Assembly: GCA_032718475.1 (NCBI GenBank)
Contig: JAUCBJ010000610.1
Coordinates: 1 to 55,994 of the forward strand
Reading direction: 5' to 3'
Source of the DNA: Nemertoderma westbladi
Taxonomy: Eukaryota > Animalia > Xenacoelomorpha
DNA length: 55,994 nt
Part shown: one piece after another, positions 7,229 through 53,864 of the stretch
Layout: each line of letters begins with the position of its first letter
How positions within the stretch are numbered: position 1 is the stretch's first letter
Notes under the pieces: model-generated
What the model saw: only the letters and a program-made list of their open reading frames with translations
What the model was told of the DNA's origin: nothing
Databases searched by the model: none
Program-made: the position numbers and the translations under genes

Positions 7229-8376
7229 TGTAAAAGCTTTTGCGTAATTAACCGGTTATTTCCCCTTAAAGTACTCTGTAGTTGGTTTGCCAGGCATAAA
7301 AAGGCCGTGTCCTTGCTGTACTGGTGTTTTAGAGGACATAAAAGTCATTTCTTCTGTATTTGTACTTTAGAGGACATAATCCGCAATCTCGTGACGCGAT
7401 AAGCTAGATACTCTTGAAAACAGTGTCGCTACCATGACGACGGCTAGCAGCTGATATTGCCACGTCGACATTTCTTTGTTTCTTTGTTCTCTCGTTGTTC
7501 GGTTGACCAATCAGAGCGTTTTTTGTCTCTGTGTTGGAGGTGTATACAGAACTCAGAAGTTCAGTGTTATGTTTTTGCCCAGAGCCTAAGAACACTGGCT
7601 TTTGGCACCTCCGTGTTTTCAGTCTTTAGTCTTACATTAGTAGGCTTAATTATAGAACGTATATCTGTTATCACAAGTTAACTCATTCACTTAATAATCA
7701 TTTATACATTAATATTACTGCTTTTAATGTCGGTTATTCGTTATATTTGCTGATGAAATATTATATCGGAATACTGATCAATAGTCAGACACCCCACCTT
7801 CTTGATATACTAAAGGTTAGAGAGACCGGTTACAGATAAACGATTGCGACCTATGTTAAGTGGTTTGAAGTGAATCTAATGCTATTTCATATGCCCAACA
7901 TAAATTGTCTGTTGCTCTCTTTATACGTGACTAAATTTAGTGAAGGTCGGCAGATTAGTGTGCAGTATTGTGCAGCATTGTGTATGAGTGTAACTGATAA
8001 CAAAGCATCTCCTAAAGAATGCGCCATATACGTGAATCTATAGCCTTTTCGTTGTGTCTAGTTTAAGTCATAACTCTGTTTACATATTTAGAGCGCCATG
8101 TCCTAAAGGAACTGTTGATATTTCCCGAAAGTGAATAATATTTGTCAGAGATTATATATTACGATCAGTCGAATAATACAGTAGGCTTACACCATCAATC
8201 ATTAAGCTCCGAACTCAGTCTCCCGGGTATATCCAACGGGTGAATGATTGCGCATAGACTGGCTTCGGCTAATGTAGTGTATTAAATACTCGTCATAGGC
8301 TAAAGACTATCTATCATCCAAAAGACATTCTAATTTAGGCAGGTTAAACTGTCAAAGGTCTTCAAAAGCGCAAACA
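7229..8376 (+). repeat. 5' LTR of BEL/Pao-1
   Basis: Direct repeat of 21777-22924 with about 6 substitutions seen by eye; TGTAAAAG...GCAAACA. Confidence 0.97.
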
Positions 8377-8387
8377 ATAACAGATAT
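8377..8387 (+). promoter_or_regulatory. Non-tRNA primer-binding site of BEL/Pao-1 (complementary to LTR 7661-7671)
   Basis: ATAACAGATAT abuts the LTR and has no TGG; its reverse complement ATATCTGTTAT is at 7661-7671. Confidence 0.7.
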
Positions 8388-26122: not shown

Positions 26123-26548
26123 GAACCTTCCACTGTATTACATAATGTGGTGATGACCCATAATTTGGTGTCAAAAGTGAAAAAAAAGGTTTTTAGTTAT
26201 GAACTGTTAAACCGAGTAGCAAGATTTATGAACACAGTTCGTATGATGTTATCTTTGTAATATTAACAACAACAATATAGCTATTGCATCATATATATAC
26301 GAATATATACATCATATACGAAACAACCCTGAATATAGCGAAGAGTCTTTGCAGAGTTGATGATAAAACAAAGTAAAGCACTCAACTATTCCCACGCAGT
26401 TAGTATTCCTATACACAATTCCGGGTGTAATCCGGGCTCCTTTACTAAGTGTTGCGGGAAGTGTCAACTTACGCAGGAGATTAGTTCGTTAGTGGATACA
26501 TTGTCTTTATACGCAGTTTCAGTTAGTACCAATAAAACAAGAGTTAAT

Positions 26549-26770
26549 TAGATAATGTTTACAGTACTGTATGTTTTACATAACTCAATTACTGTGGTTA
26601 TTGTTATGTACCTGTAGGCTCACCACATGTATGACAGTACTAACCTGCACTGCATGTGCACGTATGTATTATTCATATTCAGACTTTAGTAATACAACTG
26701 TACTAGCGATCATTGCGATTACTCGTAATGACTTATGATAATATTCGCTATTATGCATCATATTTATCTA
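26549..26770 (+). repeat. Gypsy 5' LTR (TAGATAA...TTATCTA)
   Basis: Identical by eye to 32344-32565; 7-bp terminal inverted repeat. Confidence 0.96.
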
Positions 26771-26783
26771 TGATCGCTGTTGT
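26771..26783 (+). promoter_or_regulatory. Non-tRNA primer-binding site of the Gypsy element (complementary to LTR 26694-26712)
   Basis: TGATCGCT pairs with AGCGATCA (26705-26712); GTTGT pairs with ACAAC (26694-26698). Confidence 0.6.
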
Positions 26784-27110
26784 TATTAAATTGCTGAACT
26801 GTGCACTGTGATGATATATACTGATACGCCGACTATCAGAAGTAAAGGAAATATACTGGTACACCGATTACCAGTAATCCATCATTGCAAAGTCACCTAC
26901 GCATTACCAGTACGCCGATTATCGGGAGGCACTGCCCGCATTACTAGAACACTACCGGTACACTGTTTATCGGAACGTATTACCGGTACGCCGATTACCG
27001 GAAAACGTTATTGTACTAGGCAGCTAGGCCTACTGCTGTACTAGTACGCTGACCAAAGCGCCGATTATTTACAATTAAGCCCTAGGCTGCTAGGCTAATT
27101 TTCATTAATT

Positions 27111-30100
27111 ATGGTTCAACTACACTGCACTGCTTTACAAGGGGGCCAACCATGCCCCTATATGACAGAAGATGTTGCTGCTGAGGTGGCTATACAAATA
27201 CTTACAATGCATCAAACTAATGTTCACGGTGCAGCTGCTACTGTAGGGCAACAAGCTGCAATGGGTGGTCCAAAAGCTGAAAAGGTCAAACGACCGATCT
27301 TGGAGAGTGGAAATACATTAGAGAAATGGAACTATTTTGTTACCCGGTGGGAACGATATAAACGATTGACTGCCCTAACTCCAGCTGCGATTAGTGGTCA
27401 ACTGCTGGAATGCTGCCAAGATGATTTACTTCTAGATTTGCATCGAAATGTTGGCATTGGACTGGACAACTTAAACGAAAACGATCTCCTGAATGAGATT
27501 AAACGCCTAGCCGTTCGTGATGAAAATGTCATTGTTAGTCGAATGCTGCTAAGAGGAATGCTTCAGGACCATAATGAAGGTATCCGGACGTTTGCAGCAC
27601 GTGTCAAGGGCCAAGCTGCAGTTTGCCAATATTCTGTGAAATGTATGGGTTGTGATATAGATATCTCATATGCTGATGACGAAATAAAAGATCAGATCTG
27701 CAAAGGGCTAGGTGACCAGGATATTCGACAAGATTTGCTAGGTGATCGAAATCAAACCATGAACCTTGAAGAGGTTATTAAATTCATTGAAGCAAAAGAA
27801 GCTGGAAAAAGATCACAGATGGCACTCTCAAACTCTGATGGAATATGTAAAATATCGCAATATAAACGTGATAAGAGATTCTCCAAACCAAAGACTAAAC
27901 ACACTGATGAGAAGGTGACAAATGATTCTCCATGTGGGTGGTGTGGAAAACATGGACATGGATCCAATGGGACCATCGAAAGTCGACGTGAACACTGCCC
28001 TGCCTTCCTGGTAGGATGTCGAAAATGTGGTCAGATTGGACATTATGACTCAGTATGTCGGGGTCGCCCCAAGATTAAGAAAAAATCACTAGCTAATGCC
28101 ATTATTGCAGAAGATGAAAGTGATAGTAACACATCTAGTGATGATTATGATACAGCATACTCACAGGATATACCCAATGCTAGCTTTATAGGTGGAGTCC
28201 ACCTAGAATCTACTAAGATGGTAATACTCAATAATGAAAGTGAAGAATCTATACATGGAATTGCGATGTCACATAAAGAATACGATGACATCTTAGGTTG
28301 GGTGAGCCAACGTTCACCAGATAACCCCACAATTAATGTATCTGTCGATATATGTAAGGATGCATACGCATACTTCAATATTCCACTATCAGGTAAACCA
28401 AGATGCATAACCTGTCATGCAATAGCTGATACTGGGGCCCAATCCGCGGTGGCTGGTATGCGTCTAGTTAAATCTCTTGGTCTAACAAAATCGGATTTGA
28501 TCCCTGTGACACAGTCTTTGGTAGCAGCCAATGGAACAAAATTAAAGATTTATGGTGGGTTATTTTTAAAAGTCAATTGTCAGACAAAGCAAGGAGTTTC
28601 TAGGAGCACTAAACTACTTGTATACATTCAGGGCAACTGCGACCAATTTTTCCTTAGCCGAAAAGCTTGTGAATGTCTAGGAATTATATCGACTGATTTC
28701 CCCCAAATAAATTCAATAACTAATCAATGCTTCAACAATGATAGCAATAGTGCAATTGCCCCATGTGGCTGTCTTAGACGATCCGCACCACCAATTTCAC
28801 CCTCAATGCCACCCTTACCCCTGATACCGGAGAATAGAGATGCCATAGAGAAATGGCTGTTGAACTACTATGCATCAAGCACCTTTAACATATGTGAGCA
28901 TCAGGCCTTGCCTACTATGTCAGGACCACCACTCAGTCTAATGATTGATGTAAATGCAAAACCACACGCTATTCACACACCGATACCTGTTCCTATCCAC
29001 TGGCAGAAGGCTGTCAAGGAAGGACTTGATAGGGATGTTCGTTTGGGTGTCATCGAGCCAGTCCCTTGGGGGACTCCTACATCCTGGTGCAGTCGGATGG
29101 TAACTGTAGCCAAAAAGGATGGTACGCCAAGGAGAACAGTTGATTTACAACACCTAAATGCAGCCTCAGTTCGCCAAACTCACCATACACCATCGCCGTT
29201 TCATCAAGCCATGTCTGTACCACATCATACTAAGAAGACAGTGTGTGATGCATGGAATGGCTATCATAGTGTTGCTATCAAGCCAGAAGATAGACATTTC
29301 ACAACATTTATCACCCCTTGGGGGCGTTACCAGTATCGAACCACCCCTCAAGGCTTCATAGCCGCTGGTGATGGCTATACACGCAAGTATGACGAAATTA
29401 TTACTGATATAAGCAACAAAACGAAATGTGTCGACGATGTATTACTTTGGTCGAACAATATAAAGCAAAGTTTCCAACAAACGTGTGAGTTTCTATGTCG
29501 TTGTGCAGATAATGGCATTATACTAAATCCAAACAAATTCCAATTCGCAAAGAGTGAAGTTGAGTTTGCAGGCTTTGTCATAACAGATGATAGTGTAAAA
29601 CCAAGCAAGAAATATCTGCAAGCCATTCTAGACTTTCCCACACCAACAAATATCACGGGTATACGCTCTTGGTTTGGACTTGTTAATCAGGTATCATATG
29701 CGCTTTCCATGACTGATAAAATGCTGCCATTTCGCGAACTGCTGCAAACTGGAGTAAAATTCTACTGGGATAACCAACTACAAATGCTTTTTGATGAATC
29801 CAAACAGACAATCGTGAAAGCAGTAGAAGAAGGTGTCAGAATATTTGACCCGACTAGAAAGACTTGTCTTACAACAGATTGGTGTAAAATTGGCACAGGA
29901 TTCTTCCTTACCCAGAAACACTGTACATGCCTAACGACATCACCTGACTGTTGCTCCAATGGTTGGAAACTAGTATTTGCAGGTAGCAAATTCAATAGCC
30001 CAGCTGAATCTAACTATTCTCCAGTAGAAGGAGAAGCGTTGGCAGTAGTTAAAGGGTTGAATAAGACCCGATACTTTACTCTGGGTATCTCACACCTGAT

Positions 30101-32228
30101 AGTAGCTACAGATCATAAGCCATTGCTGAAGATCCTTGGTGATAAAAATATGGAAGATATAAGCAATCCCCGCTTATTGGCACTAAAAGAAAAAACATTG
30201 GGGTATAAATTTACCATTATATATCTACCTGGCAAGACTATACGTGGTCCTGATGGGGCATCCCGGTATCCATCAGGTGAGTTACCATCATCTGATACGA
30301 TTAATCCCATAGTAGCCGAAGTTGCTAGTGATGATGATTGTTATGAAACTGAATTATCCACAATGACGAGTGCTGTTTGTTCATTGTACTCGTTAGGTAC
30401 TCTTAAATCTGTTACATGGAATCGTGTCCGTGAAGCCACTATGAGTGATGATGTAATGTTGGACCTGTTGAAGATAATCCAATGTGGCTTTCCTGATAAC
30501 CGACATAGTGTACCAGCACATTTATTGGAATACTTTCCCTACCGCGAGAATCTCTCGACCGTTGACGATAGTGTCATTATCTACAACAACAGAGTAGTCA
30601 TACCACCATTGCTAAGAACTGAGGTTTTAGAAGCTCTACATTCAGCACATCAAGGTGTAACATCAATGGTGTCACGCGCTACCTCATCTGTATTCTGGCC
30701 AGGCATTACTCCGGATATTACTAATATGCGCTCACACTGTTCTGCATGTAATCAAATGGCCCCGTCACAACCCAATCAACCACCAATGCCGATGGTTTAC
30801 CCCGAATACCCATTTCAATGCATCTGCGCTGACTATGCTCATATCGAGGGATCAAACTATCTCATCATTGTTGATCGATACTCTGGATGGCCCCAAATTA
30901 GTAAAGCAGCCGCAGGAGAAGGTGCGAAACAACTAGTTGGAGAACTAAAGCAACATTGTGCCACATTTGGAATCCCAGAGGAGGCAGCAACAGATGGAGG
31001 ACCTGAGTTCCAATCTGCTGAAACTTTAAAATTTATGAAAAACTGGGGAATACAGCACCGATTGTCTTCAGTTGCATTTCCCCATTCCAATACGAGGGCT
31101 GAAATTGGTGTCAAAACAATGAGGCGTCTCTTAACTGACAATATAGGACCCAATGGAAACCTTAATACAGATAACTTCCTTCGAGCACTACTCCAATATC
31201 GAAACACACCAGACCAAGACACGAAGATATCACCAGCAGTAGCAATATTTGGGCGACAAATTCGGGACTTCACACCCGTTCTTCCATCGAAATATAAGCC
31301 ATGCAAAGAATGGCAAGATACTCTAATATGTCGCGAGGAAGCTCTTCGTAAACGCCATAACATAGCACATGAACGACTAGAAGAACATACACATCGACTT
31401 CCACCATTAAAAGTTGGTGACCATGTCTATGTTCAAAACCAAGTTGGTAATCACCCCAAGAAATGGGATAGAACAGCATTGGTAGTAGAAGTAAAGCAAT
31501 TCGACCAATACAATGTTCGCATAGATGGATCTGGTAGAATGTCACTCCGAAATCGTAAATTTCTTCGTAAATTCACGCCCTTTCCAACGAATGATACAAA
31601 GCTGATATCAAATAGCATACCAGTTCCCAAATCTTTATTGCCTGAGAATCATGCAAGAAAAACGATACAACCAACCAATACAGGAAGCCAAACCACCGAT
31701 CCAAAAATCGAACCACCTAAACCAGATAATCAAATCAATGATCAACCACCTAAACCAGGTGATCAAACCAACGATCAACCACCTAATAGGGGCAATCAAC
31801 CACTCAAACCACCTATTCCTGGTTATCAAACCAGTGATCATACAATCATCGATCCCCATTCAATTCCAAAGAATCCATCAAGCACAATAACTCTCCCAGA
31901 GGAGATCTCAAGACCTACCTCAGATATTGTCATTACCCCACCGGCACCGCTACCACTAAAAGTGTCCCCTCACAAAACGGGCCGTACCGTAAGTACCACT
32001 AGCAGTCGACCACCAAACGTTGATATTACGTCACCTACGGCTACGATGTCATTGCCACGCCGATCAAATCGGAAGTGCCAGCCTAATACTCGTCTTCGGG
32101 ATTATGAGACTTCTCTTAATGTTGTCAGAGGTAGTCATGGTTTGTCACGAGTTTTCACACGCCAGCGAAGTAAACTTAAAGAGGGTGAAATAAATCACTC
32201 AATAAATGACTCAGCGAAAACTCTCTAG
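27111..32228 (+). CDS. gag-pol: Gypsy Gag-Pol polyprotein, 1705 aa, intact
   Basis: Knuckles CGWC...H and CRKCGQIGHYDSVC; PR ADTGA; RT DAWNGY...PQG...CVDD; RH TDW/EGEALA/TDHKPL; IN HSAHQG..CSAC plus D/DGG/AE. Confidence 0.96.
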   Translation: MVQLHCTALQGGQPCPYMTEDVAAEVAIQILTMHQTNVHGAAATVGQQAAMGGPKAEKVKRPILESGNTLEKWNYFVTRWERYKRLTALTPAAISGQLLECCQDDLLLDLHRNVGIGLDNLNENDLLNEIKRLAVRDENVIVSRMLLRGMLQDHNEGIRTFAARVKGQAAVCQYSVKCMGCDIDISYADDEIKDQICKGLGDQDIRQDLLGDRNQTMNLEEVIKFIEAKEAGKRSQMALSNSDGICKISQYKRDKRFSKPKTKHTDEKVTNDSPCGWCGKHGHGSNGTIESRREHCPAFLVGCRKCGQIGHYDSVCRGRPKIKKKSLANAIIAEDESDSNTSSDDYDTAYSQDIPNASFIGGVHLESTKMVILNNESEESIHGIAMSHKEYDDILGWVSQRSPDNPTINVSVDICKDAYAYFNIPLSGKPRCITCHAIADTGAQSAVAGMRLVKSLGLTKSDLIPVTQSLVAANGTKLKIYGGLFLKVNCQTKQGVSRSTKLLVYIQGNCDQFFLSRKACECLGIISTDFPQINSITNQCFNNDSNSAIAPCGCLRRSAPPISPSMPPLPLIPENRDAIEKWLLNYYASSTFNICEHQALPTMSGPPLSLMIDVNAKPHAIHTPIPVPIHWQKAVKEGLDRDVRLGVIEPVPWGTPTSWCSRMVTVAKKDGTPRRTVDLQHLNAASVRQTHHTPSPFHQAMSVPHHTKKTVCDAWNGYHSVAIKPEDRHFTTFITPWGRYQYRTTPQGFIAAGDGYTRKYDEIITDISNKTKCVDDVLLWSNNIKQSFQQTCEFLCRCADNGIILNPNKFQFAKSEVEFAGFVITDDSVKPSKKYLQAILDFPTPTNITGIRSWFGLVNQVSYALSMTDKMLPFRELLQTGVKFYWDNQLQMLFDESKQTIVKAVEEGVRIFDPTRKTCLTTDWCKIGTGFFLTQKHCTCLTTSPDCCSNGWKLVFAGSKFNSPAESNYSPVEGEALAVVKGLNKTRYFTLGISHLIVATDHKPLLKILGDKNMEDISNPRLLALKEKTLGYKFTIIYLPGKTIRGPDGASRYPSGELPSSDTINPIVAEVASDDDCYETELSTMTSAVCSLYSLGTLKSVTWNRVREATMSDDVMLDLLKIIQCGFPDNRHSVPAHLLEYFPYRENLSTVDDSVIIYNNRVVIPPLLRTEVLEALHSAHQGVTSMVSRATSSVFWPGITPDITNMRSHCSACNQMAPSQPNQPPMPMVYPEYPFQCICADYAHIEGSNYLIIVDRYSGWPQISKAAAGEGAKQLVGELKQHCATFGIPEEAATDGGPEFQSAETLKFMKNWGIQHRLSSVAFPHSNTRAEIGVKTMRRLLTDNIGPNGNLNTDNFLRALLQYRNTPDQDTKISPAVAIFGRQIRDFTPVLPSKYKPCKEWQDTLICREEALRKRHNIAHERLEEHTHRLPPLKVGDHVYVQNQVGNHPKKWDRTALVVEVKQFDQYNVRIDGSGRMSLRNRKFLRKFTPFPTNDTKLISNSIPVPKSLLPENHARKTIQPTNTGSQTTDPKIEPPKPDNQINDQPPKPGDQTNDQPPNRGNQPLKPPIPGYQTSDHTIIDPHSIPKNPSSTITLPEEISRPTSDIVITPPAPLPLKVSPHKTGRTVSTTSSRPPNVDITSPTATMSLPRRSNRKCQPNTRLRDYETSLNVVRGSHGLSRVFTRQRSKLKEGEINHSINDSAKTL

Positions 32229-32313
32229 AACTATATCGAAACAACCGTAAACTCATATGTTCTCAGCGAAAACTCTCTAGAACTATATCGAAACAACTGT
32301 AAACTCATATGTT
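32210..32313 (+). repeat. 52-bp tandem duplication spanning the Gypsy stop codon and 3' UTR
   Basis: CTCAGCGAAAACTCTCTAGAACTATATCGAAACAAC(C/T)GTAAACTCATATGTT occurs twice. Confidence 0.9.
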
Positions 32314-32343
32314 ATCATGTGACTCTTGTTTGGGAGGGGGAGA

Positions 32344-32565
32344 TAGATAATGTTTACAGTACTGTATGTTTTACATAACTCAATTACTGTGGTTATTGTT
32401 ATGTACCTGTAGGCTCACCACATGTATGACAGTACTAACCTGCACTGCATGTGCACGTATGTATTATTCATATTCAGACTTTAGTAATACAACTGTACTA
32501 GCGATCATTGCGATTACTCGTAATGACTTATGATAATATTCGCTATTATGCATCATATTTATCTA
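32344..32565 (+). repeat. Gypsy 3' LTR
   Basis: Follows the PPT; identical to the 5' LTR. Confidence 0.96.
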
Positions 32566-34300
32566 TTAATAATGCTTAGAACAATAAAAGTGTATATTTT
32601 AATGTTACAGTAGTTGCAATATTGATAGATAACAAACTGGTAAGAAATAGTAGCCACTTTGAGGAGTGGTACTTGCCTGGGAACTATATAATATACCGTT
32701 AGTCCTAAAATCATCTACAACAATTATGTTATATAAACTCAGCTTTAAATACTGGTAAACCAATAATGAATCCAATTTAAGCATTTAACCAATCACAGGG
32801 CGAGGAATCGCACTGTGCAAATAGAACCAACAACAGTAAGCTGACATTGTAGTTAACTGTTCATTATGAAGCCTAACACAGATAAAACTGTAGCCATGGT
32901 TACCGTTTACCGTTCAGTGTATAAGTAAAGGGCCATTAAGGTGGTTCTTAAATTCAATGCGCCGCAAATTTCCTTATTATGAATAGAAATTGATAATTCA
33001 ACAACCGGATTCGTGTACAGTCCCCTAATTTTTTAATGAAAATACAAAAAATTACACACTAAATAAATTTGGCACAAAAAAAATATAATATTTATGTTAC
33101 GAATGATATGCACTATGCAAAATACTTGGAACATACATACAGACCTTGCGGTGAAAATACTTTCAGTTTAAAAATATATACGTACATACAAATACATATG
33201 CTACATAGACACACTGCAAATGATAAAAATACTTAAATCAAATTTACTTCCAATAAACATTATTCCATCAAAATAAACTATATTTTATATTTAACTATTG
33301 TGTATAACTTTCAACATTCGACTAATACTACTAATATAAAAATACAAAAAAAGACACACACCGCTTGGTCTGGCGTTGTAAGATAAGTAAGATTTAAATA
33401 ATTGTTCAAATTAAACGACACAAAAATAAGGGATAGATTGCCAGTCCACCTTATTTAAACAATATATATTTTACTGTGCGCACACAGAATTACATTGTGA
33501 TGGATATTAATTTAACATATTATTTTTATTAATTATTATATTTTTCGGATACAAATAAATTAGCCAAAAATAAAACACCACCGTGTATTATACCTAACAG
33601 GAAATTTTTTATAAACCCCAGAGGTACGGCAATGATTATTTAATTATTTAATCGGAAGGGGAAATAGACCGGCCAGTCGCCATTGATTACTCGACGCGAT
33701 GTTGGCTCCAGAAACAAACTTCCAGCGAGGGAAGGGACAGACGACATCAAAATCTATCAGATGTCACACAACCATCGGTGATCCAGAGTGTAGACTTCGT
33801 CAGCGCCGCGCAGACACGCACTACCGCCAAAGCGCGTAAGGTGATGCTCGGCTCGGCGCACTTCCCATAACTCACCTGTCGACGGAACTAATTTTCGGAC
33901 AACCTAATACTGTTATTTACTATCGGTTTTACATGTTATACTTACCAACCTCTTTTAATCAACTAGGCAATAACACCATATTTGGTAGATTAAATGCCCA
34001 CAAATCGATTGCATGCAATATCTATAATAACTAACCTGTATTTAAATAATAAAGATGTAGTCTATTAAATTGATAATAGCCGCTCCGCCACTTTCCGTCC
34101 TAAGACTATATGTAGTCAAATTAACCTAATAATTATTTATGTGAGACTTCAAATCAAGTAATGATTTGTACTAGTTTTATTTTACTTTTTATTATGTAAG
34201 TACCAACATTAATTTAACTCGAACATTTATCCCTAGTCCCCAGTTAAATTAATTAAACGTCAAAGCAGTCTTACATTGAGTTTGTTGTAATTGGAAAAAC

Positions 34301-37300
34301 TTAGACTTTCGCCTCATCGAGAGCCATTTCTAAGAGACATATCTTCTGAATAGGTCGACATAGGATAGAAATTAATATCTTCCATTTCTTAGTACGAGGA
34401 CATTTAATGGCTGTTGCTGTCCTCACATGTACAGTTCGTACTAAACCATCAGCGCTAGGTAAAACTTCGGAGATACGAGCAACTTTCCAGTTGAATCGCT
34501 TTGAGTTAGAGTCAGTGAGCATCACTAAATCACCAACGGCGAAATTTCTGTGAGGGCGGAGCCATTTCTGTCGAGTCATCAAGTTCTCGAGATATGTTCG
34601 TCGCCAGATAGTCCAATATTGGTTGGCCAAGAACTGTGCTTTCCTCCACATGGTCTTATAATTGAGCTCATTGCCGTCATACAGCTCATGCAGAAGTCTG
34701 TTAGAGTTTGGTAAAACGGTACTACGTCGGAGTAATAAATGATTCGGCGTCAGTATTTCATTTGACGTCACATCGTCATTTAGAGGGGAAAGAGATCTAT
34801 CATTGATTAGATACTGGACTTCTGCCAAAGTTGTACGAAGTACTTCTTCAGAAACGAGTCGATGTTGAACTCGACGCTTTTCCATGAGTGCCAGCAAGGT
34901 GTGTTTAGTAGTTCGGATAAGCCGTTCCCAAACACCGCCGTGATGACTTGCTGTGGGTGTCTGGAAGTACCAGGAAATCTTACCGACAATCTCATCAGGG
35001 ATACCTATATCTTTGGCCTCGGCCATCAGTTCGGCCAATTCGGTTTCACTTCCTCCGAAATGACTTCCCTGATCAGAATATATATTCTCCACTCCAGCAT
35101 GGTTGCAGATAAATCGACGAAGAACACAAATTAATGAGTCAGCGCTGTAGTCCATTGACAAGTCCAATACCACCGCTCTGGAACTCATACATGTTAACAA
35201 AACTCCGTAACGTTTATCCGACCCACGTCCCCTAATAACATATAAAGGGCCGAATAAATCAACGCCTACGTTGGTAAAAACAGGAATGTAGCCGATGGTG
35301 CGAACCATAGGTATGGGAGCCATCATTTGTTTTCCAGGTTGAGCGAAACGTTTGCGACAGAAGATACAGTTATGGATGATGGCCTTTACAACTTTCCGGA
35401 GAGCATTCACCCAGTATAAGCGTCGTACTTTGGCGATGGTGTAATCAATACCCAGGTGGCCGCACGAGTAATGAATGTCCCTAATGATGACTGTAGTTAA
35501 ATGGTGCTTTGTTGGTAATATAATTGGATGTGTGATCTCATAACTGTAAGTTTGTATCAAACCCATTCGCGAGCCCATACGTAGCAGTCCATCATCAGCA
35601 ATAATTGGGTTGAGTATGGCGATAGATCTCGGAATAGATTTGGGTTTACTATTTCTAATAGCATCAATTACGCCAGAAAATTCAGCCTGTTGAATAAGCT
35701 GAATTATTTTCAGTTTAGCTTGTGCTAAACACCGTGTATGTAAATCGTCATTATCTATGTTAGTGACAATTTCACCTCGCTGACGATTTAATTTCTGGCG
35801 ATTATGGTGAAACTTTATTAGAAATCTCATCACTACTCGCGTCAGGAGCTGGAAGGAACTAAATCGCGTCAACAACTTGGAAAGTGTTGAAAATGGTTGA
35901 ACGTCTATGGTCGCAACCACCTTGGATTTTGAATGTTTCGCCGGTTTATCTTTCCTTAAACCAGCCTCAGGGGGAATTTCTGCGTCCTTCATCGGATTGG
36001 TTTGAGTTAGAGAAGAGTCCCACCGCGATTCAGGCTGTCTTAAAAATTGCGGGCCGCCGTACCAACAATCCTGGTATTTGGTGATAAAGTCTAATGGCTC
36101 GGCCCCACGGCTGGCGATGTCTGCTGGATTCTTCGTACCAGGAATATGACGCCATTGAGAGGGAGCTGTGTAGCGTCGAATTTCTTCAATTCGGTTGGCT
36201 TCGTATGTTTCGAATCTCCGAGACTCATTAGCGATCTGACACAAAACGCTTGTGCTGTCACTCCAACATATTACATTGTTTGAATGAATCTGCAGGGTGA
36301 TGCTCGCAGCGAACTGTCTATGACTACGTACGAGTAAAACGGCTGACTGCAATTCAAGTCTTGGAATGGAAACCTTCTTTAGAGGTGCAGTACGTGTCTT
36401 TGCATACACCATGGAACAAGTTATGTGGCCTGAGGGTGACACTTTACGTATGTATGATAAACAACCATATCCAGTTAAACTGGCATCGCAAAAGTGATGT
36501 AATTGTAACACATCAGTATCAGTCGAAATGGTATTGGCAAAATAATGGCGTGGTATCTGAAGATTTTCAAGCTGATGTAGTTGATTGTACCACTGTAGCC
36601 ATTCAGATGCTAACGATTGTTCTAGAACATCGTCCCAGTTCAATTTTAGTCCCCATAGTTTCTGAAGGAACTGTTTTCCCTGAAGAATAATGGGAGCCAC
36701 GAGTCCTAATGGATCATATATAGACGCTACGCAAACAAGACAGCCACGTTTGGTCAAGGCATGGGATTTTCGTGATGGTTTAAATAGGAAGCAGTCTCGC
36801 TCAGGGCACCATACTATACCGAGAGCTCGCGAAACTGGAAGTTCATCGAAGTTCAAGTCGAGCTCAGCTTCAACACGTTTGGACTGTGGAATGTATTTAA
36901 GAAATTCCTTCGATGATGACATGAATTTTGTTAAAGTGAATCCTCCAAGTCGCAAACACTCGATTAATCCTAGAGCCAGTCGGACGGCCTCCGTAACACT
37001 CTCAGCACCCGACATTCCGTCGTCAACATAAAAGTGTTTGTTGATCGCTTCGATAACATTGGGTGGAAATTTGTCCTTGTGATCCTCAGCTGATTGTCGG
37101 AGAGCGTATGTTGCCGCACACGGAGAATCTTTTTTACCAAACATATGAACCAACATCTGATAAATAATATAATCTGCTGGATTATTAGGTTCAACATCAC
37201 CCTCCCACCAGATAATATTCTGTGACTCAGAATCGCAGTCGTAAGTGCGCACTTGGTGAAACATCTGTTCAATGTCACAAGCAAAAACTACCCTGTGCTG

Positions 37301-40300
37301 CCGAAATTGAAACAATACCTCTATAATGGAGTTGTAAAAATTGGGTCCCTCCATTAATTCTGAATTGAGACTCATTCCTTTATATTGTGCCGCCGCGTTA
37401 TTTACCACCCTCAACTTACCAGGTTTGTTGGCGTTCCAGACGGGATGTGTTGGCACATAGTACTTACGTGGACCATCAGGTAACAATTTTTCAGCTTCTG
37501 TAAGTCGTCGGGCATACCCTTTCGCTTCATATTCATCAAATGTGGCTTGATATTTTTTATGATCAGCCGGGATTTTAAGTAATTTACGCTTGATCCATCT
37601 CAGCCTAGTCAAAGCTAATTGTTTATTATTTATTAGGGGTTTATCTTTGTTTAACCACAACATTCCTACGTAGTAATGACCGTCTATGAACTTTGTTGTC
37701 TCTCTTAGAATTTTCTCAGATTGTATGTCTTGTACAGATTTGTTTTGCAGTCGTGTAGGACAATAATATGCTTCAGAATCCCAAAATTTCATCAGTAAGT
37801 CATGGGTAACTTCATCTGATGGGCTATTATCATTCCACAAAGGACAACATTCTAGATGATTTACTGATACTTGAGCTTTACAATATTTTAAGTCATCGGG
37901 ATTTTCGTCAGTAACGTCATCAGTTATGTCATCATATACATCATTCAAACGCCATCTGCAAGGTTGTTGTACACATTCCATCTGCTCAACAAAGTCATAA
38001 TTTTCACTTCTTTCAGCCTTACACGTATGGACCTCCAAATCTGCGTGACTGGCGTCATGGTTACTGCTGACATCACTTGTTACTTGTACTGACGGCAAAC
38101 GCCGTCCATCACATAATGGGCCTACCAAAGTCCAACCAAATGGCGTTTTAATTGCGTGGGGGTTATTAATCTCATCATGGGAAGTGGGTCCCCATACGGA
38201 TTTTAGAACTTTGTGAGCCTGGGGGTTATTCATTCCAATTATCATTGAAATACTATCAATATCTACAGTAGGATAAGTAATGTTTACATTCTTAAGGTAA
38301 GTCAGCTGGTCTAATGACCACCTACTAGGTCTAACGTAATTTACGTGAAGATTAGGTATTAACATTACGTCTCTTAGGGATAATGTGAAGTGACAGTCCT
38401 TTTGAATAGATCTAACAACACAAGCACCCTGTTCCACTGTCTTGCCTTCACGTGTTAGTATGGTGTTAAGTGATACATCTACAGGTTCTGTATCCATGTC
38501 TAGTAGCTCACCTACAGTCTTGTCTATTAGCGTCCCTGTGGAACCATCATCTAACAAAGCAAACGTAGTTATTAGGCGTCCCGTTTCAGTATTCTCAACT
38601 GAGAGTGGTACTACACCAAGGAATACAGCCTTTATGTCTAACCCCTTTGGATTCAAATCATGATTTAATGCCATTGTAGCTACGCTTTTGTACGCCCTAT
38701 GATCTGTATTAGAGAACTGACTAAACTTCATAGATGTAGTGTTAGCCGCACTATCACGTTGTATAGCATAATAGTTTCTGAAAAGGTTGTCTGTCTCTTC
38801 CTCTGTCTTACATGGTTCAGGATGCAAAACCCTAGCGTGTCGTTTTCCACATCCACTTGCTGTGCAACGATATTTAGATCTGCACTTTTTCCGCCAATGC
38901 CCTTTCCGGAGACATAATGTACATAACTTATGTTCAGCCACGAAATCATAACACGCGCGGCTACCAATATCCTGTAGTTGAGTGCACTGAGCAGTAAAGT
39001 GAATTTTTTGGCAAAATAGACATGGCGACATTTCTGCCGCTGTTGTATTTACATTAATGTCTGTGTCGTCGACTAAGTAACCATAGTCACCTACAAGTGG
39101 GTTGTCTTGGGTAAATGGTTCGTCGTTATTTGTCTCCATTCCATTCCATTCGTCGGTCACATGGAAACTTGACATTGTACTAGTCACCTCAGCTTCCGTG
39201 GGCATTCTAGAAGGTTTTTGTATGTCTAATACTTCCCGGCCAGGTGAAAAACCTTTAAATTTATCTCCCATTTTGCGCCTTAAAATGTCACCCGCTGCCT
39301 GAGGACCATATAACGGACATGTAGCTACATTTGCTTCCTCGTCTAGGAAAACCATCAACTCATCCATTCCGGGGTCACGGCCACACCTAATCCTAAATTT
39401 ATTTACCTGCCTAGCCCAACGTATTCGTAATGGATTTGCTAAATTTGCCGCTATATTCTGAATAAATTCAGGATTATTTAAATAGTAATGACATTGTAGG
39501 GTCTGTAAAATATCCATTGTGCGTCTTACATCGTGAGAGTACTTAAGTAGTTCTTTAGGGGAAGCTACGGGATATCTACATCGAGTGACGTCGGCAACAA
39601 CTGCTTTCATTACCAATGCTGGTTGTCCATATCGTCTTTCTAATGTGTTCCATGCCATAGCATACCCGTCAGTCATGCCTTCAAAGTGTTCGATTAAATC
39701 TAAAGGTTCTCCTCTAACATATGTTATTAGATATCGAAGTTTTACCTCATCTGGAACCTGCTTAGCATCAACCTGCGTACGAAACCTGTTTTTAAATCCT
39801 AAAAATTTCTTTGGGTCTCCGGTAAAAGGTGTTGGATCTAACTTTGGGGCCTCTAATGAAAGAGCTAATTTTTCGAACAAGGCATGCTGTTGGTTTGCTG
39901 TAGTATGGTTACATTTTTGTAGCGGTCGTCGACATTTGGTAGACTTCGATGAACTATTTTTTACGTTGCTATGACTACACTTAAAGTCCTCACTACTATT
40001 GTCAGAAGAATTATCATCGTCATCTGTATGTCTAACATGGTCTGGGTCAGGGTCACCATAAGGTATGGAATGTCTGTACGGGGCTAAATCAACATCTGGG
40101 CCAGAGTTTCCTATGCATTCCGGGTTGTCTGTGACTATACCTCCATATGCATCCTGCGGTACACATGTATTCTCAGTAGTATGTCGCCTGGAGTTAGATT
40201 TTCTGGACTTACCCCGATTAGGCTGATCTACTGATTGTGGGTGCTTACTTATTGAGCCGACAGTACGCAATTGTGCATAAAATGCTTCGCCTCGCGGTCC

Positions 40301-42565
40301 TGGTGGCACTTTAAATTGTTCAGGGGGTCGTGATGGAGTAGTAGGTTGAATTTCAAACTGTGTGTATGGTCTGTCGTGAAGTCTATACGCACTGGCCACA
40401 CAAGGCCTATTGTATGTCGCTCCGCTGTCTTTAGGGATTGATACATTATGTTTCTTATTAACAGGTAATTGTTGGGTACTGCGCTGTGGTGACGTCATTG
40501 AATCATCAATTCGTGGCGTCATTGTGCTTCCGGGTTTAGGATGGCCGTGAGGTGGATGAGAAACACTTGTAAATTGTTTATGTTCGAGCGGCTGCTGGGT
40601 TGCCATCATGGGTGTCATCATATACTGAGCTAATTTGTTAATAGATTGCGTCACATGTGATACAACCTCCTCAAGTTGCTGATGAGTCACAAGGCGGTTC
40701 TCTGGAATAGTAGACAAATTACACTTTTGTGAGTCTGTTCTGTATATCCCTTTTCCTTTACGGAAAATTTTTGTCTTTTGTGAGTCCGCAATACGTGGTG
40801 GAAGTTGTCTAACACCTTCATCTGCCGAATTCTCTGACAGCTCATCATCATTATCTTCCTCTGTATCAGTTCTAATCATATGAGGCACTGAGTTAAAGGT
40901 TAACTTATTACGTATTAGTGATGATTCTGTATGTGTGGTGTGAGGTGTTGTAATTGTTGTCATTGTCGAAGTCGGGGGTACTACAACTTCTACTGGGTCT
41001 GCTACTTCTACAGGGTCTGCTACATCTGTGATTTCTGTGATAGCTGTAACAGGTCCATTGGCGAATGGTCTGGGGGCATCACTCCAGAATATGGATTCAG
41101 TAGGAGTGGATTGCATAGAAGGTAAAGCCAGGGACGCTATATCCACAACAGTGTCAGTCTCGATGGCTTGCTCTACTTGCTGCCTATATTCTTCTAACTG
41201 GCGCTGGTGTCGAGCATGTTGGAGATCCTTTTGGTCTTCAAAATGTCTTATACGCTGGAAAATATCGTTTTTCTTTTGCATTTCTTTAATCCTATCACGT
41301 TCAGCTTGCTCTACCTGCAATGACTTACGATGAGCTTCATCCAACTGCCTCTTAGCTGCCTGTGAGGCTTCTTCCATCTGTCGCCTTGCTGCTTCCTCTT
41401 GAAGTTTCGCAGCTTCCTTAGCCTCTTCTACCTGCCTCTTAGCTGCTTCCATTTGTAGTTTCGCAGCTTCCTTAGCCTCTTCTACCTGCCTCTTAGCTGC
41501 TTCCATTTGTAGTTTCGCAGCTTCCTTAGCCTCTTCTACCTGCCTCTTGGCTGCTTCCATTCGAGCACTAGCTTGCGCAGTTGCAAGTCTATTCTCGACC
41601 AGAACCCGTTCCCGTTCAATCTGTTGAGCCATCATCATGTCCTCCTCGTCATGTCGCTTAGATAGAACAGAGAGGTTAGCCTCGGCTATGCGTCTCATTC
41701 GAGATGACACTGTGGATCCAGTGTCAGATGCCCCCGACCCTGCTATAGAACACCTACCTACACTATTGGGCCTAATTGGTAAATTTAGTGTAGGTCTGTC
41801 TACGTCTGGGCTGGTTACAATTGGCGTAAGTGTGCGATTCACGTGCTGACTAGAATCTGTTGCAAACGGAATAGGGTAACTATCCCAGGCTAAAGAAGCA
41901 ATGGGTGTACTTACGGCTGAGGTTGTTTGGGTACTTACTCGGGATGTAATTGGTTCCAACTTAGAGCTTACCCATTCTGAAAATATGGTATATCTATCCT
42001 TACACTGTACATACCTTTTCTGAGCTCGTTGATATTCATCGACAGAGCCACCCTGGGTCTCAAAATACTGAGACTGATGGCGGTATTGATCTACAATCTG
42101 AATCCACCTGCTGGCAAGCCTATCGACTTTTCGCCTCATATCTACAGTACACTGACCTTGTTGAGTTGTCATAGCGACCGATTCCAGCTCCGATATACCA
42201 GCCTCCATATTGTGGTATAGTTGGCCCAGTCCACGATTGATAGTCTGGATGTCGACCTTCCTTGCTGGGACGTCGTCAGATTGGCGTTGGCGGTATGATT
42301 TCCTTCGTGCGCCGCCGGTATTCGCACCAGGGTCGGCATTCTCTCGGCGTAGTGAGCGCTGTGACGAGTGTCTCTGACTCAAAGCGACCCTTGAGCCAGA
42401 GTTCTCGCTTCCGTGAGAAAGTTGGTTGTTGTCTAAGGTTATGGTGGTTAACAGTGGTGGTGGTGGTTCAATATCAGCTGTAGTCACTATCGTCGTGGTG
42501 ATGTCGACGTTGGTTGTCTCCTCTCTAGCAACCACTGAACCAGGGGGGCTATGAATAGTGGACAT
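34301..42565 (-). CDS. gag-pol: BEL/Pao-2 Gag-Pol polyprotein, 2754 aa, intact
   Basis: FTGDP..F; knuckles CLFCQKIH and CTLCLRKGH....C...C...C...H...LH; PR LLDDGS; RT YVDD; RH HFCDAS/PRLEL/NPADIASRG; IN H...GH..C..C, GVDLFGP, SDQG, WERL. Confidence 0.97.
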   Translation of the reverse strand: MSTIHSPPGSVVAREETTNVDITTTIVTTADIEPPPPLLTTITLDNNQLSHGSENSGSRVALSQRHSSQRSLRRENADPGANTGGARRKSYRQRQSDDVPARKVDIQTINRGLGQLYHNMEAGISELESVAMTTQQGQCTVDMRRKVDRLASRWIQIVDQYRHQSQYFETQGGSVDEYQRAQKRYVQCKDRYTIFSEWVSSKLEPITSRVSTQTTSAVSTPIASLAWDSYPIPFATDSSQHVNRTLTPIVTSPDVDRPTLNLPIRPNSVGRCSIAGSGASDTGSTVSSRMRRIAEANLSVLSKRHDEEDMMMAQQIERERVLVENRLATAQASARMEAAKRQVEEAKEAAKLQMEAAKRQVEEAKEAAKLQMEAAKRQVEEAKEAAKLQEEAARRQMEEASQAAKRQLDEAHRKSLQVEQAERDRIKEMQKKNDIFQRIRHFEDQKDLQHARHQRQLEEYRQQVEQAIETDTVVDIASLALPSMQSTPTESIFWSDAPRPFANGPVTAITEITDVADPVEVADPVEVVVPPTSTMTTITTPHTTHTESSLIRNKLTFNSVPHMIRTDTEEDNDDELSENSADEGVRQLPPRIADSQKTKIFRKGKGIYRTDSQKCNLSTIPENRLVTHQQLEEVVSHVTQSINKLAQYMMTPMMATQQPLEHKQFTSVSHPPHGHPKPGSTMTPRIDDSMTSPQRSTQQLPVNKKHNVSIPKDSGATYNRPCVASAYRLHDRPYTQFEIQPTTPSRPPEQFKVPPGPRGEAFYAQLRTVGSISKHPQSVDQPNRGKSRKSNSRRHTTENTCVPQDAYGGIVTDNPECIGNSGPDVDLAPYRHSIPYGDPDPDHVRHTDDDDNSSDNSSEDFKCSHSNVKNSSSKSTKCRRPLQKCNHTTANQQHALFEKLALSLEAPKLDPTPFTGDPKKFLGFKNRFRTQVDAKQVPDEVKLRYLITYVRGEPLDLIEHFEGMTDGYAMAWNTLERRYGQPALVMKAVVADVTRCRYPVASPKELLKYSHDVRRTMDILQTLQCHYYLNNPEFIQNIAANLANPLRIRWARQVNKFRIRCGRDPGMDELMVFLDEEANVATCPLYGPQAAGDILRRKMGDKFKGFSPGREVLDIQKPSRMPTEAEVTSTMSSFHVTDEWNGMETNNDEPFTQDNPLVGDYGYLVDDTDINVNTTAAEMSPCLFCQKIHFTAQCTQLQDIGSRACYDFVAEHKLCTLCLRKGHWRKKCRSKYRCTASGCGKRHARVLHPEPCKTEEETDNLFRNYYAIQRDSAANTTSMKFSQFSNTDHRAYKSVATMALNHDLNPKGLDIKAVFLGVVPLSVENTETGRLITTFALLDDGSTGTLIDKTVGELLDMDTEPVDVSLNTILTREGKTVEQGACVVRSIQKDCHFTLSLRDVMLIPNLHVNYVRPSRWSLDQLTYLKNVNITYPTVDIDSISMIIGMNNPQAHKVLKSVWGPTSHDEINNPHAIKTPFGWTLVGPLCDGRRLPSVQVTSDVSSNHDASHADLEVHTCKAERSENYDFVEQMECVQQPCRWRLNDVYDDITDDVTDENPDDLKYCKAQVSVNHLECCPLWNDNSPSDEVTHDLLMKFWDSEAYYCPTRLQNKSVQDIQSEKILRETTKFIDGHYYVGMLWLNKDKPLINNKQLALTRLRWIKRKLLKIPADHKKYQATFDEYEAKGYARRLTEAEKLLPDGPRKYYVPTHPVWNANKPGKLRVVNNAAAQYKGMSLNSELMEGPNFYNSIIEVLFQFRQHRVVFACDIEQMFHQVRTYDCDSESQNIIWWEGDVEPNNPADYIIYQMLVHMFGKKDSPCAATYALRQSAEDHKDKFPPNVIEAINKHFYVDDGMSGAESVTEAVRLALGLIECLRLGGFTLTKFMSSSKEFLKYIPQSKRVEAELDLNFDELPVSRALGIVWCPERDCFLFKPSRKSHALTKRGCLVCVASIYDPLGLVAPIILQGKQFLQKLWGLKLNWDDVLEQSLASEWLQWYNQLHQLENLQIPRHYFANTISTDTDVLQLHHFCDASLTGYGCLSYIRKVSPSGHITCSMVYAKTRTAPLKKVSIPRLELQSAVLLVRSHRQFAASITLQIHSNNVICWSDSTSVLCQIANESRRFETYEANRIEEIRRYTAPSQWRHIPGTKNPADIASRGAEPLDFITKYQDCWYGGPQFLRQPESRWDSSLTQTNPMKDAEIPPEAGLRKDKPAKHSKSKVVATIDVQPFSTLSKLLTRFSSFQLLTRVVMRFLIKFHHNRQKLNRQRGEIVTNIDNDDLHTRCLAQAKLKIIQLIQQAEFSGVIDAIRNSKPKSIPRSIAILNPIIADDGLLRMGSRMGLIQTYSYEITHPIILPTKHHLTTVIIRDIHYSCGHLGIDYTIAKVRRLYWVNALRKVVKAIIHNCIFCRKRFAQPGKQMMAPIPMVRTIGYIPVFTNVGVDLFGPLYVIRGRGSDKRYGVLLTCMSSRAVVLDLSMDYSADSLICVLRRFICNHAGVENIYSDQGSHFGGSETELAELMAEAKDIGIPDEIVGKISWYFQTPTASHHGGVWERLIRTTKHTLLALMEKRRVQHRLVSEEVLRTTLAEVQYLINDRSLSPLNDDVTSNEILTPNHLLLRRSTVLPNSNRLLHELYDGNELNYKTMWRKAQFLANQYWTIWRRTYLENLMTRQKWLRPHRNFAVGDLVMLTDSNSKRFNWKVARISEVLPSADGLVRTVHVRTATAIKCPRTKKWKILISILCRPIQKICLLEMALDEAKV
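41399..41560 (-). repeat. 3 x 54-bp coding repeat (MEAAKRQVEEAKEAAKLQ) in the BEL/Pao-2 Gag coiled coil
   Basis: Visible in both DNA and translation. Confidence 0.92.
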
Positions 42566-43419
42566 TATTTGTTAGCGATTATAAATATTTCGCAGGTCTG
42601 CCAAAATTAATTAATTTAATTAAATTTTTCAGATTTTTACACGGATTTTTTTTTTTTTTAAGTATTTATTTGTATAAACTTAAGTTACCCTCTTGACTGG
42701 CAATCTGAAAAAATAACTTTATATTTAATTAAATGTAATAAATTTGTTAGTGATACGCCACAAATGCATATCACTTATGTTATCAATAGGGGGATTAGAG
42801 ACAATATTTAGATAATAAATTATCTGGCTAGCTAAACCTGAATGTTGCCTAGACTTAGCTATACAATGTGTGTAATATTATATAGAAACGAAAATATAGC
42901 ATTACAGTAGCTTTAAAACTAATCTATTGTTGTCGGTGGTGCCTCCTACAATAGAAAAAGAGTCAGAATATAAATTATATACCTAACTTTCAAAAAGAAA
43001 ATTAAGATCATAAAAAGTTGCAAATTATACTTTACGGGATTCAGACCTGACCCCGGTCCTAAAAGGGGCCTGGTTTACTAGTAAACACGTAGTAAATCAG
43101 GATAATCGTAGCGGTACCTTCTTACCCTCCGGCGATCGCGTGGAATGTAATATCCTCTTGCAGACCAATCTGGCCCAAAAGGAGTCCTAGCCCAATCAGA
43201 TCTCCGGTCCCCGAGACCGGTTCGTAGTGATTTGGGACCACCGAACAAGGAAGGAGAAGGTAGGACTAAACGCTTGAGAGGCTAGGAAAATGAAGCAAAA
43301 ATACAGCCTACAGTACCGATTGCACCACAATCAATAGCATAAGGTGATACTTAGCCAGTTTCCTTTTCGTCTCAGTTTGTAGATGACTTTCGAAACAGAA
43401 CGAGTTTGAGGAAGAGTTA

Positions 43420-43691
43420 AGCGTTGAGAAACAGCGTTGAGAAACAGCTTTGAGAAACAGCGTTGAGAAACAGCGTTGAGAAACAGCGATGAGAAACAGC
43501 GATGAGAAACAGCGTTGAGAAACAGCGTTGAGAAACAGCGTTGAGAAACAGCGTTGAGAAACAGCGTTGAGAAACAGCGTTGAGAAACAGCGTTGAGAAA
43601 CAGCGTTGAGAAACAGCGTTGAGAAACAGCGATGAGAAACAGCGTTGAGAAACAGCGATGAGAAACAGCGTTGAGAAACAGCGCTGAGAAA
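43420..43691. repeat. 13-bp minisatellite (GAGAAACAGCGTT, ~21 copies) in the BEL/Pao-2 5' leader
   Basis: Read directly; variant unit ends are GTT, GAT, TTT and GCT. Confidence 0.97.
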
Positions 43692-43713
43692 ATTGAACAC
43701 TTATCCGCATTCA

Positions 43714-43725
43714 ACTATTTCTTAC
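43714..43725 (-). promoter_or_regulatory. Non-tRNA primer-binding site of BEL/Pao-2 (complementary to LTR 43934-43945)
   Basis: Sense GTAAGAAATAGT abuts the LTR; sense ACTATTTCTTAC lies at 43945-43934. Confidence 0.72.
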
Positions 43726-44313
43726 TATACACAATTCCGGGTGTAATCCGGGCTCCTTTACTAAGTGTTGCGGGAAGTGTCAACTTACGCAGGAGATTAG
43801 TTCGTTAGTGGATACATTGTCTTTATACGCAGTTTCAGTTAGTACCAATAAAACAAGAGTTAATAATGCTTAGAACAATAAAAGTGTATATTTTAATGTT
43901 ACAGTAGTTGCAATATTGATAGATAACAAACTGGTAAGAAATAGTAGCCACTTTGAGGAGTGGTACTTGCCTGGGAACTAAATAATATACCGTTAGTCCT
44001 AAAATCATCTACAACAATTATGTTATATAAACTCAGCTTTAAATACTGGTAAACCAATAATGAATCCAATTTAAGCATTTAACCAATCACAGGGCGAGGA
44101 ATCGCACTGTGCAAATAGAACCAACAACAGTAAGCTGACATTGTAGTTAACTGTTCATTATGAAGCCTAACACAGATAAAACTGTAGCCATGGTTACCGT
44201 TTACCGTTCAGTGTATAAGTAAAGGGCCATTAAGGTGGTTCTTAAATTCAATGCGCCGCAAATTTCCTTATTATGAATAGAAATTGATAATTCAACAACC
44301 GGATTCGTGTACA
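43726..44313 (-). repeat. 5' LTR of BEL/Pao-2 (sense TGTACAC...GTGTATA)
   Basis: Matches the split 3' LTR; imperfect 15-bp terminal inverted repeat. Confidence 0.96.
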
Positions 44314-44321
44314 ATTCCCAT

Positions 44322-44906
44322 TCGACTACTATTCTAACTCGACTACTATTCTAACTCGACTACTATTCTAACTCGACTACTATTCTAACTCGACTACTAT
44401 TCTAACTCGACTACTATTCTAACTCGACTACTATTCTAACTCGACTACTATTCTAACTCGACTACTATTCTAACTCGACTACTATTCTAACTCGACTACT
44501 ATTCTAACTCGACTACTATTCTAACTCGACTACTATTCTAACTCGACTACTATTCTAACTCGACTACTATTCTAACTCGACTACTATTCTAACTCGACTA
44601 CTATTCTAACTCGACTACTATTCTAACTCGACTACTATTCTAACTCGACTACTATTCTAACTCGACTACTATTCTAACTCGACTACTATTCTAACTCGAC
44701 TACTATTCTAACTCGACTACTATTCTAATTCGACTACTATTCTAACACGACTACTATTCTAACTCGACTACTATTCTAACTCGACTACTATTCTAACTCG
44801 ACTACTATTCTAACTCGACTACTATTCTAACTCGACTACTATTCTAACTCGACTACTATTCTAACTCGACTACTATTCTAACTCGACTACTATTTCCACT
44901 CTCGAC
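44322..44906. repeat. 17-bp minisatellite (CTACTATTCTAACTCGA, ~34 copies)
   Basis: Near-perfect array with a few variant units around 44730-44750 and at the ends. Confidence 0.97.
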
Positions 44907-44935
44907 TGTTTGTTGAGATTCCTCTTCAATGATAC

Positions 44936-53568: not shown

Positions 53569-53864
53569 CTAAAAGTCAACAGAACATAATTAAAAGTATT
53601 GCATATACATAAACCCTACTACTCATTTCATTGAATATTTATTAAATACTACAAAGCCTGTGGCCCTTCGGGACGGGCCACAGCTTTCTAGCCCATGTAC
53701 TGTACAGATACGTGAATATTATGTTGATTACAGATTTGCCCATTATGCAGATTGGAGAATTGCATATAGAACAGATTCATACAGTACCATCATAAAATAA
53801 AACCCCACCCCCGTAGGAGATAACTGTCAAGTTTCAGCTTAATGACAATTCTAAGTAAAAAAAC

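Follow-up and report, generated by a model that had tools for sequence, protein, structure and literature searches.

The window, the whole stretch of DNA that was analysed, comprises 55,994 nt from Nemertoderma westbladi (assembly GCA_032718475.1, contig JAUCBJ010000610.1, positions 1 to 55,994). It contains three LTR elements, BEL-1, BEL-2 and a Gypsy element nested in the latter, and no tRNA genes were found in it. BEL-2 is read on the minus strand, and the features of its locus are as follows.

44314..44318, minus strand: target-site duplication GGAAT (other copy at 26409-26405)
43726..44313, minus strand: BEL-2 5′ LTR, 588 nt, TG...TA, defined by repeat boundaries, the target duplication and one difference from the 3′ LTR
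44023..44045, minus strand: two TATA-like boxes after three reverse CCAAT boxes, a candidate promoter by motif match only
43934..43945, minus strand: LTR segment (nt 369-380) that pairs with the primer-binding position and is a candidate self-primer, followed by CA
43892..43897, minus strand: candidate poly(A) signal ATTAAA, starting at the 37th nt after the segment 3′ end, of inferred function
43714..43725, minus strand: primer-binding position, 12 nt directly adjoining the LTR end, without TGG and starting with the splice-donor-like GTAAGA
43691..43716, minus strand: local hairpin that includes the final 3 nt of the 12-mer and lacks conservation among relatives
43420..43691, no strand assigned: 13-nt tandem array in the leader, 21 copies, immediately following the hairpin
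34301..42571, minus strand: single gag-pol ORF of 2756 codons, first ATG at 42565, with DUF1759, Pao peptidase A17, integrase H2C2 and DUF5641
33020..33034, minus strand: polypurine tract
32571..33019, minus strand: first 449 nt of the 3′ LTR, with its own copy of the segment at 32651-32640
26549..32565, plus strand: Gypsy element inserted in the 3′ LTR at LTR nt 450-454, with identical 222-nt LTRs and the duplication TTAAT
26410..26548, minus strand: last 139 nt of the 3′ LTR, on the far side of the Gypsy element

Both ends of BEL-2 are fixed, because the GGAAT duplication flanks the element on either side, and the polypurine tract before the 3′ LTR agrees with this placement. Without the nested insertion the element measures ∼11.9 kb, of which 1.15 kb is leader. 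The catalytic motifs of PR, RT, RNase H and IN are all present in the ORF in BEL/Pao order, together with the Pfam domains PF05380, PF03564, PF18701 and PF17921. The best matches of the RT-RNase H region have 30–43% identity and are all listed with PF05380, and the region clusters with BEL/Pao proteins from brachiopods, sea urchins, tunicates, fish and molluscs. The two LTRs differ at 1 of 588 sites (0/139 and 1/449 in the two parts of the 3′ LTR; 95% interval 0.004–0.9%), so the copy is young, in agreement with the recent transposition of the original prediction. The element had also been described as intact, which holds for the 5′ LTR and for the ORF, open for all 2756 codons with its catalytic motifs in place, but not for the 3′ LTR, which is split by the 6-kb Gypsy insertion ∼30 nt past the candidate poly(A) signal; BEL-2 is therefore not fully intact.

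The ∼900 residues ahead of the DUF1759 capsid region (42565-39800, minus strand) have no Pfam match and include 18-residue coiled-coil-like repeats at 41388-41561; the N-terminal part of BEL-1 is similarly long and repeat-bearing. An acceptor-like site is located at 42598, 33 nt ahead of the first BEL-2 ATG, and a search of Rfam over 42500-44400 returned two chance-level matches only. The insertion point of BEL-2 borders on a 17-nt satellite array (34 copies, 99% matches; 44322-44894), beyond which a 43-nt perfect inverted repeat (44933-44975 and 51866-51908) brackets a 7-kb region of broken non-LTR-type RT and endonuclease fragments on both strands. Elsewhere in the window, a tandem duplication of ∼2976 nt at 1-6272 (two copies and the start of a third, 76–98% identity) encloses a 48-nt imperfect palindrome at 220-267, and an array of 146-nt units at 53813-55575 includes an exact 506-nt internal duplication.

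Complementarity between LTR and primer-binding position

Positions 43725-43714 are the exact reverse complement of positions 43945-43934, and they lie flush with the end of the BEL-2 LTR, since that boundary is set by the GGAAT duplication and the polypurine tract. The 12-bp duplex between LTR and primer-binding position was thus confirmed in coordinates and letters as originally predicted; a flush match of at least 12 nt occurs in 3 of 5000 dinucleotide shuffles of the LTR, and the duplex has an energy of −12.8 kcal/mol. Because tRNAs end in CCA, TGG is needed at a tRNA primer site, and the first TGG in BEL-2 is found 369 nt into the leader. A comparable pairing is present in BEL-1:

7229..8376, plus strand: BEL-1 5′ LTR, 1148 nt, TG...CA (3′ LTR at 21777-22924, 6 differences, duplication GAATG)
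7661..7671, plus strand: BEL-1 LTR segment (nt 433-443) complementary to the element's own primer-binding position, followed by CA
8377..8387, plus strand: BEL-1 primer-binding position, 11 nt adjoining the LTR end without a gap

The flush 11-nt match of BEL-1 recurs in 4 of 5000 shuffles. The reading frame of this element falls into three parts, being interrupted by a stop at 14227-14229 and shifted near 16343-16551. Since the identity of BEL-1 and BEL-2 over RT-RNase H is 38% and a self-search of the window showed no DNA similarity between them, they constitute two observations, though they are kin. An intron splitting the segment was considered for both elements and rejected, the contiguous match scoring best in each.

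Folded alone, the BEL-2 site region reaches −10.9 kcal/mol, with part of the primer site hidden, and a dimer fold with the segment bound reaches −19.3 kcal/mol and keeps 7 bp of the hairpin. The local hairpin that had been pointed out does exist (−8.4 kcal/mol) but is unremarkable against shuffles (33/300). Its suggested role as a switch competing with the duplex finds no support, as only 3 of the 12 nt are common to the two structures, which can coexist, and as a significant hairpin at this place is predicted in just 2 of the 17 elements with a match (BEL-1, BEL-2 and the 15 relatives described below), BEL-2 not being one of them; a conserved hairpin after the primer site was dropped as a candidate for this last reason. 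The comparable BEL-1 hairpin (ATTGCTT/AAGCAAT) is not the predicted fold, the best fold being a different hairpin clear of the 11-mer. The CA that follows the segment in both BEL-1 and BEL-2, proposed to be a shared cleavage context, proved to be a tendency only: the next nucleotide is C in 11 of the 17 elements and the next two are CA in eight, while the segment itself ends in AC in 12.

Pairing outside the core duplex was significant in 1/17 elements at p ≤ 0.05 (combined p 0.28), indicating that the duplex stops sharply. A poly(A) signal (AATAAA or ATTAAA) is located downstream of the segment in 15 of the 17 and within 40 nt upstream of it in none, which places the segment early in R. Folding of the LTR plus 86 nt of leader, with varied RNA starts, predicted the BEL-2 duplex with a probability of ∼0.99 for an RNA that begins at the segment and of 0 to 0.17 for one that begins at LTR nt 300, 340 or 355; the value for BEL-1 in the same kind of test was at most 0.33. 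The TATA-like boxes of BEL-2 lie 100 and 84 nt upstream of the segment, and would put it inside the RNA instead of at the 5′ end as in Tf1. A conserved TATA distance was not found among 18 elements, a TATA-like box ∼25–35 nt upstream being present only in L051 and L105.

The nested Gypsy element has LTR ends of the form TA...TA and no TGG after the LTR; at 26771-26778 its site has 8 nt flush with the LTR (9 including the last LTR base) that are complementary to LTR nt 157-164 (26705-26712). It encodes an intact ORF of 1709 codons with no chromodomain reported, and its relatives, at 56–65%, are found in marine animals. On these letters it is a third, weaker candidate for self-priming, apparently outside the chromodomain-bearing group.

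Primer-binding positions of BEL/Pao relatives

An alignment of BEL-2 with 25 homologues served as the query for a survey in which at least 129 loci were retrieved from metagenome contigs (best 80 matches), viral contigs and genome bins, the one marginal match among viral contigs being left out. We infer that the retrieved BEL/Pao loci are animal-host DNA within those assemblies. Loci L081 to L129 are spread over many contigs that had been assigned to bacterial and archaeal genome bins, and probably represent host DNA in those bins. Among the listed loci, 58 of at least 4 kb had a long-range direct repeat; removal of 22 in which the second copy extends as far as the contig end, six with tandem or unrelated repeats and one ending 2 nt from the contig end left 29 relatives with a readable LTR end. 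Relatives were called tRNA-type by eye if TGGTCC, TGGACC or TGGTGC stood a few nt past the LTR end, which was the case in 13 (seven of them near-copies of one family) and not in the other 16. Each site was scored by its longest Watson-Crick complement in the LTR at offsets 0–3, either contiguous or across GT[AG]AG...YAG, with splice rules and four LTR-end adjustments that were fixed after a first look and with the end of L040 set by hand.

Fifteen of the 16 relatives lacking a tRNA-type site score 10–15 nt, 12 of these across a predicted intron only and three contiguously, in contrast to 4–6 nt in the 13 tRNA-type relatives, none of which exceeds 6. The sole exception, L048, has a score of 7, a TGG at offset 1 without a tRNA-type motif, and a doubtful LTR end. 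Control positions in the leader and flank of all 31 elements gave at least 10 nt in 17 of 5379 cases and at least 11 nt in three. When primer sites were compared with foreign LTRs, at least 10 nt matched in 9 of 272 pairs, six of the nine involving three related families, and on account of this clustering the 15 matching relatives represent approximately 12 distinct primers. In the close relatives L086 and L105, two positions differ on both strands with pairing kept. Nine further loci, in which the LTR end was not set by independent means, include six with a site of 10–12 nt that follows CA and matches across a canonical junction, and three (L003, L016 and L017) in which no site was found. A blind upstream scan of loci lacking a fixed LTR end yielded little information for the most part, the contigs starting too late, and some of its matches are ordinary inverted repeats. 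The related families L037 and L052 share the 3′ part of the segment, contiguous in the former and split by a predicted intron in the latter, which suggests intron loss or gain within this subgroup.

RT phylogenies were built with FastTree on 125 rows and with IQ-TREE (LG+G4) on a 36-row subset from which near-copies and rows with unscored sites were mostly omitted and for which L103 and L116 were too short. A single branch divides self-complementary from tRNA-type elements, requiring one change compared with a shuffled mean of 6.2. Fourteen self-complementary relatives form a clade with 100/99 support that includes proteins named from a trematode, a brachiopod, a sea urchin, a limpet and an oyster. 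The branch that joins BEL-1, BEL-2 and L051 at the base of the other self-complementary elements is weak (66/93), and at this value a single origin of the class is neither shown nor rejected on the RT tree. L051, one of the six further loci with a site and, among the matches listed, the nearest to BEL-1 and BEL-2 by tree path, pairs over 12 nt across a predicted intron, and its TATA box stands 31 nt upstream of the segment.

Proposed priming by LTR RNA and its alternatives

The sequence presents exact, flush and family-specific complementarity at the place where tRNA-type relatives carry a tRNA site. BEL-2 is therefore likely, with a probability of roughly 0.7, to prime reverse transcription with a segment of its own LTR RNA and not with a tRNA, much as Tf1 does. 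By analogy with that element, the BEL-2 transcript would fold back on itself so that the segment pairs with the primer-binding position, and the element's RNase H would cut at the segment 3′ end, after ...AC and before C. RT would then extend the cut end across the remaining LTR, producing minus-strand strong-stop DNA, and strand transfer would rely on the part of R that lies between cut and poly(A) signal. In LTR replication the primer site is restored when plus-strand synthesis copies the primer, which would keep both halves matched; copying of the proposed primer would regenerate the BEL-2 site in the same step and would account for exact matches that vary by family. In most relatives the segment would form only once the LTR intron is spliced out, whereas BEL-1 and BEL-2 carry a ready-made one. 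The original prediction that the site is not a decayed tRNA site, and that the duplex serves self-priming, is supported by the relatives from other hosts, the controls and the tree.

The strongest competing explanation, although an unlikely one, is that the duplex is under selection for a structural role (packaging, dimerisation or site protection) and that priming there is by a tRNA fragment or some other small host RNA. Half-tRNA priming is known in some plant Copia groups, according to the accessible part of one source (PMC6317226). As the BEL/Pao site differs between families, however, many different host RNAs would be needed, and in each family it nevertheless fits the element's own LTR. 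Furthermore, the match ends at the LTR end or 1–3 nt from it, where the primer 3′ end must lie, and it is absent from all 13 tRNA-type elements. Less probable still is that the same segment acts as primer with a 3′ end made by host 3′-end processing, or as a separate short transcript, and not by RNase H. CA is a usual cleavage dinucleotide in 3′-end processing, and its presence next to the segment in 8/17 elements speaks for this possibility, but the position of the poly(A) signals, downstream of the segment and never just upstream, speaks against it.

It is very improbable that the BEL-2 match is a by-product of splice signals, the donor GTAAGA at the LTR end being inherently complementary to an acceptor pyrimidine tract (TTTCTTACCAG). 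Position 43725 is indeed one of two GTRAG sites in a leader that also contains five upstream ATGs and several acceptor-like sites. The consensus would, however, account for 5–6 nt and not for 12, and GTRAG occurs at this place in 1/17 elements, BEL-1 and the 15 relatives matching without it. The donor at 43725 may be used in addition to the primer role, and a leader intron would then strip the primer site and the tandem array from BEL-2 mRNA. A chance match at a decayed tRNA site, for which the fact that such matches had been sought calls for a look-elsewhere discount, has next to no probability given the rarity of flush matches in shuffles of two elements, the replication in 15/16 relatives against 17/5379 controls, which refutes it, and a single LTR difference that leaves little time for decay.

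Priming by the element's own LTR RNA can be extended, tentatively and at somewhat worse than even odds, to a wider scenario. A large aquatic BEL/Pao branch would have dropped tRNA priming once, its primer arising when an LTR intron is removed by splicing, such that host splicing gates reverse transcription, with BEL-1 and BEL-2 as intron-less members; the BEL-2 site may double as a donor masked by the duplex, thereby sorting genome RNA from mRNA.

Comparison with known systems

In the ICTV description of the Belpaoviridae, all members are primed by tRNA, replication is poorly understood, the primer site is an 18-nt sequence for tRNA-Arg or tRNA-Gly and the genome measures 4.2–10 kb (PMC8742986). 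BEL-2 resembles this family (Semotivirus) in its LTRs, polypurine tract, single gag-pol ORF, Pao peptidase, DUF1759, DUF5641 and Cys-His boxes, and its 588-nt LTRs are within the family range of 0.2–1.2 kb. It differs in size, at ∼11.9 kb, and in lacking the tRNA-Arg/Gly site, by reason of which it is best regarded as an element of the BEL/Pao lineage that deviates from what ICTV describes. No paper on BEL/Pao self-priming or on an intron-built primer was found in the open literature, and supplements, Repbase/GyDB/Dfam and subscription papers may describe such sites. The main text of three BEL/Pao surveys (PMC3118150, PMC554778, PMC6238403) contains neither “PBS” nor “tRNA”, and they consequently neither support nor exclude self-priming; in the accessible part of PMC3601003, BEL/Pao LTRs are not modelled. 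Self-priming in BEL/Pao would account for the failure of tRNA-based LTR annotation to detect a primer site in such elements.

Published self-priming systems are those of Tf1/sushi, Tcn1 and the plant TAR Copia elements (PMC6317226, PMC4600332, PMC10085805, PMC7175516, PMC6934838); as far as the accessible portions of this literature go, proof of self-priming is confined to yeast Tf1 and the Ty3/gypsy group to which it belongs, and a single plant Copia lineage is predicted to use it. In Tf1, the transcript's first 11 bases pair with the primer site and RNase H cuts between bases 11 and 12 (accessible text of PMC7175516). Complementarity of this 11-nt class, between LTR RNA and a site after the 5′ LTR, is shared by Tf1, Tf2, Tj1 and the Tf1/sushi group (PMC7175516, PMC4600332 and PMC10085805, each as available in part) with BEL-2, in which it extends to 12 nt and is flush. 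Like the Tf1/sushi elements, BEL-2 has no tRNA site, and it has the RNase H motifs for the predicted cut. The Tf1 self-primer is the transcript 5′ end, and folding of BEL-2 favours the same start, although its TATA-like boxes lie 84–100 nt upstream. Unlike Tf1/sushi, which are Ty3/gypsy chromoviruses, BEL-2 has BEL/Pao domains only, with no chromodomain family found, and in most of its BEL/Pao relatives the segment is split by a predicted intron. The three-duplex “pretzel” of Tf1 is likewise not seen here: two comparisons of site-adjacent 20-mers with the downstream LTR gave flanking helices at p ≤ 0.05 in 1/17 and 0/17 elements, the one being BEL-2 (8 bp, p 0.04), with perfect helices only scored.

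The TAR lineage of Ty1/copia (Houba, Osr-1) and the Tcn1 chromoviruses offer a further parallel, in that self-priming was predicted from sequence and sister elements are tRNA-primed (PMC6317226, accessible part). They belong to other superfamilies, with plant hosts, and an intron-built primer goes unmentioned for them in the available portion of the same source. If the proposal for BEL-2 and its relatives is true, they would represent a third LTR superfamily with independently evolved self-priming, in a widespread animal lineage and with a primer that is made by splicing in most members, and the model predicts exact, testable RNA ends.
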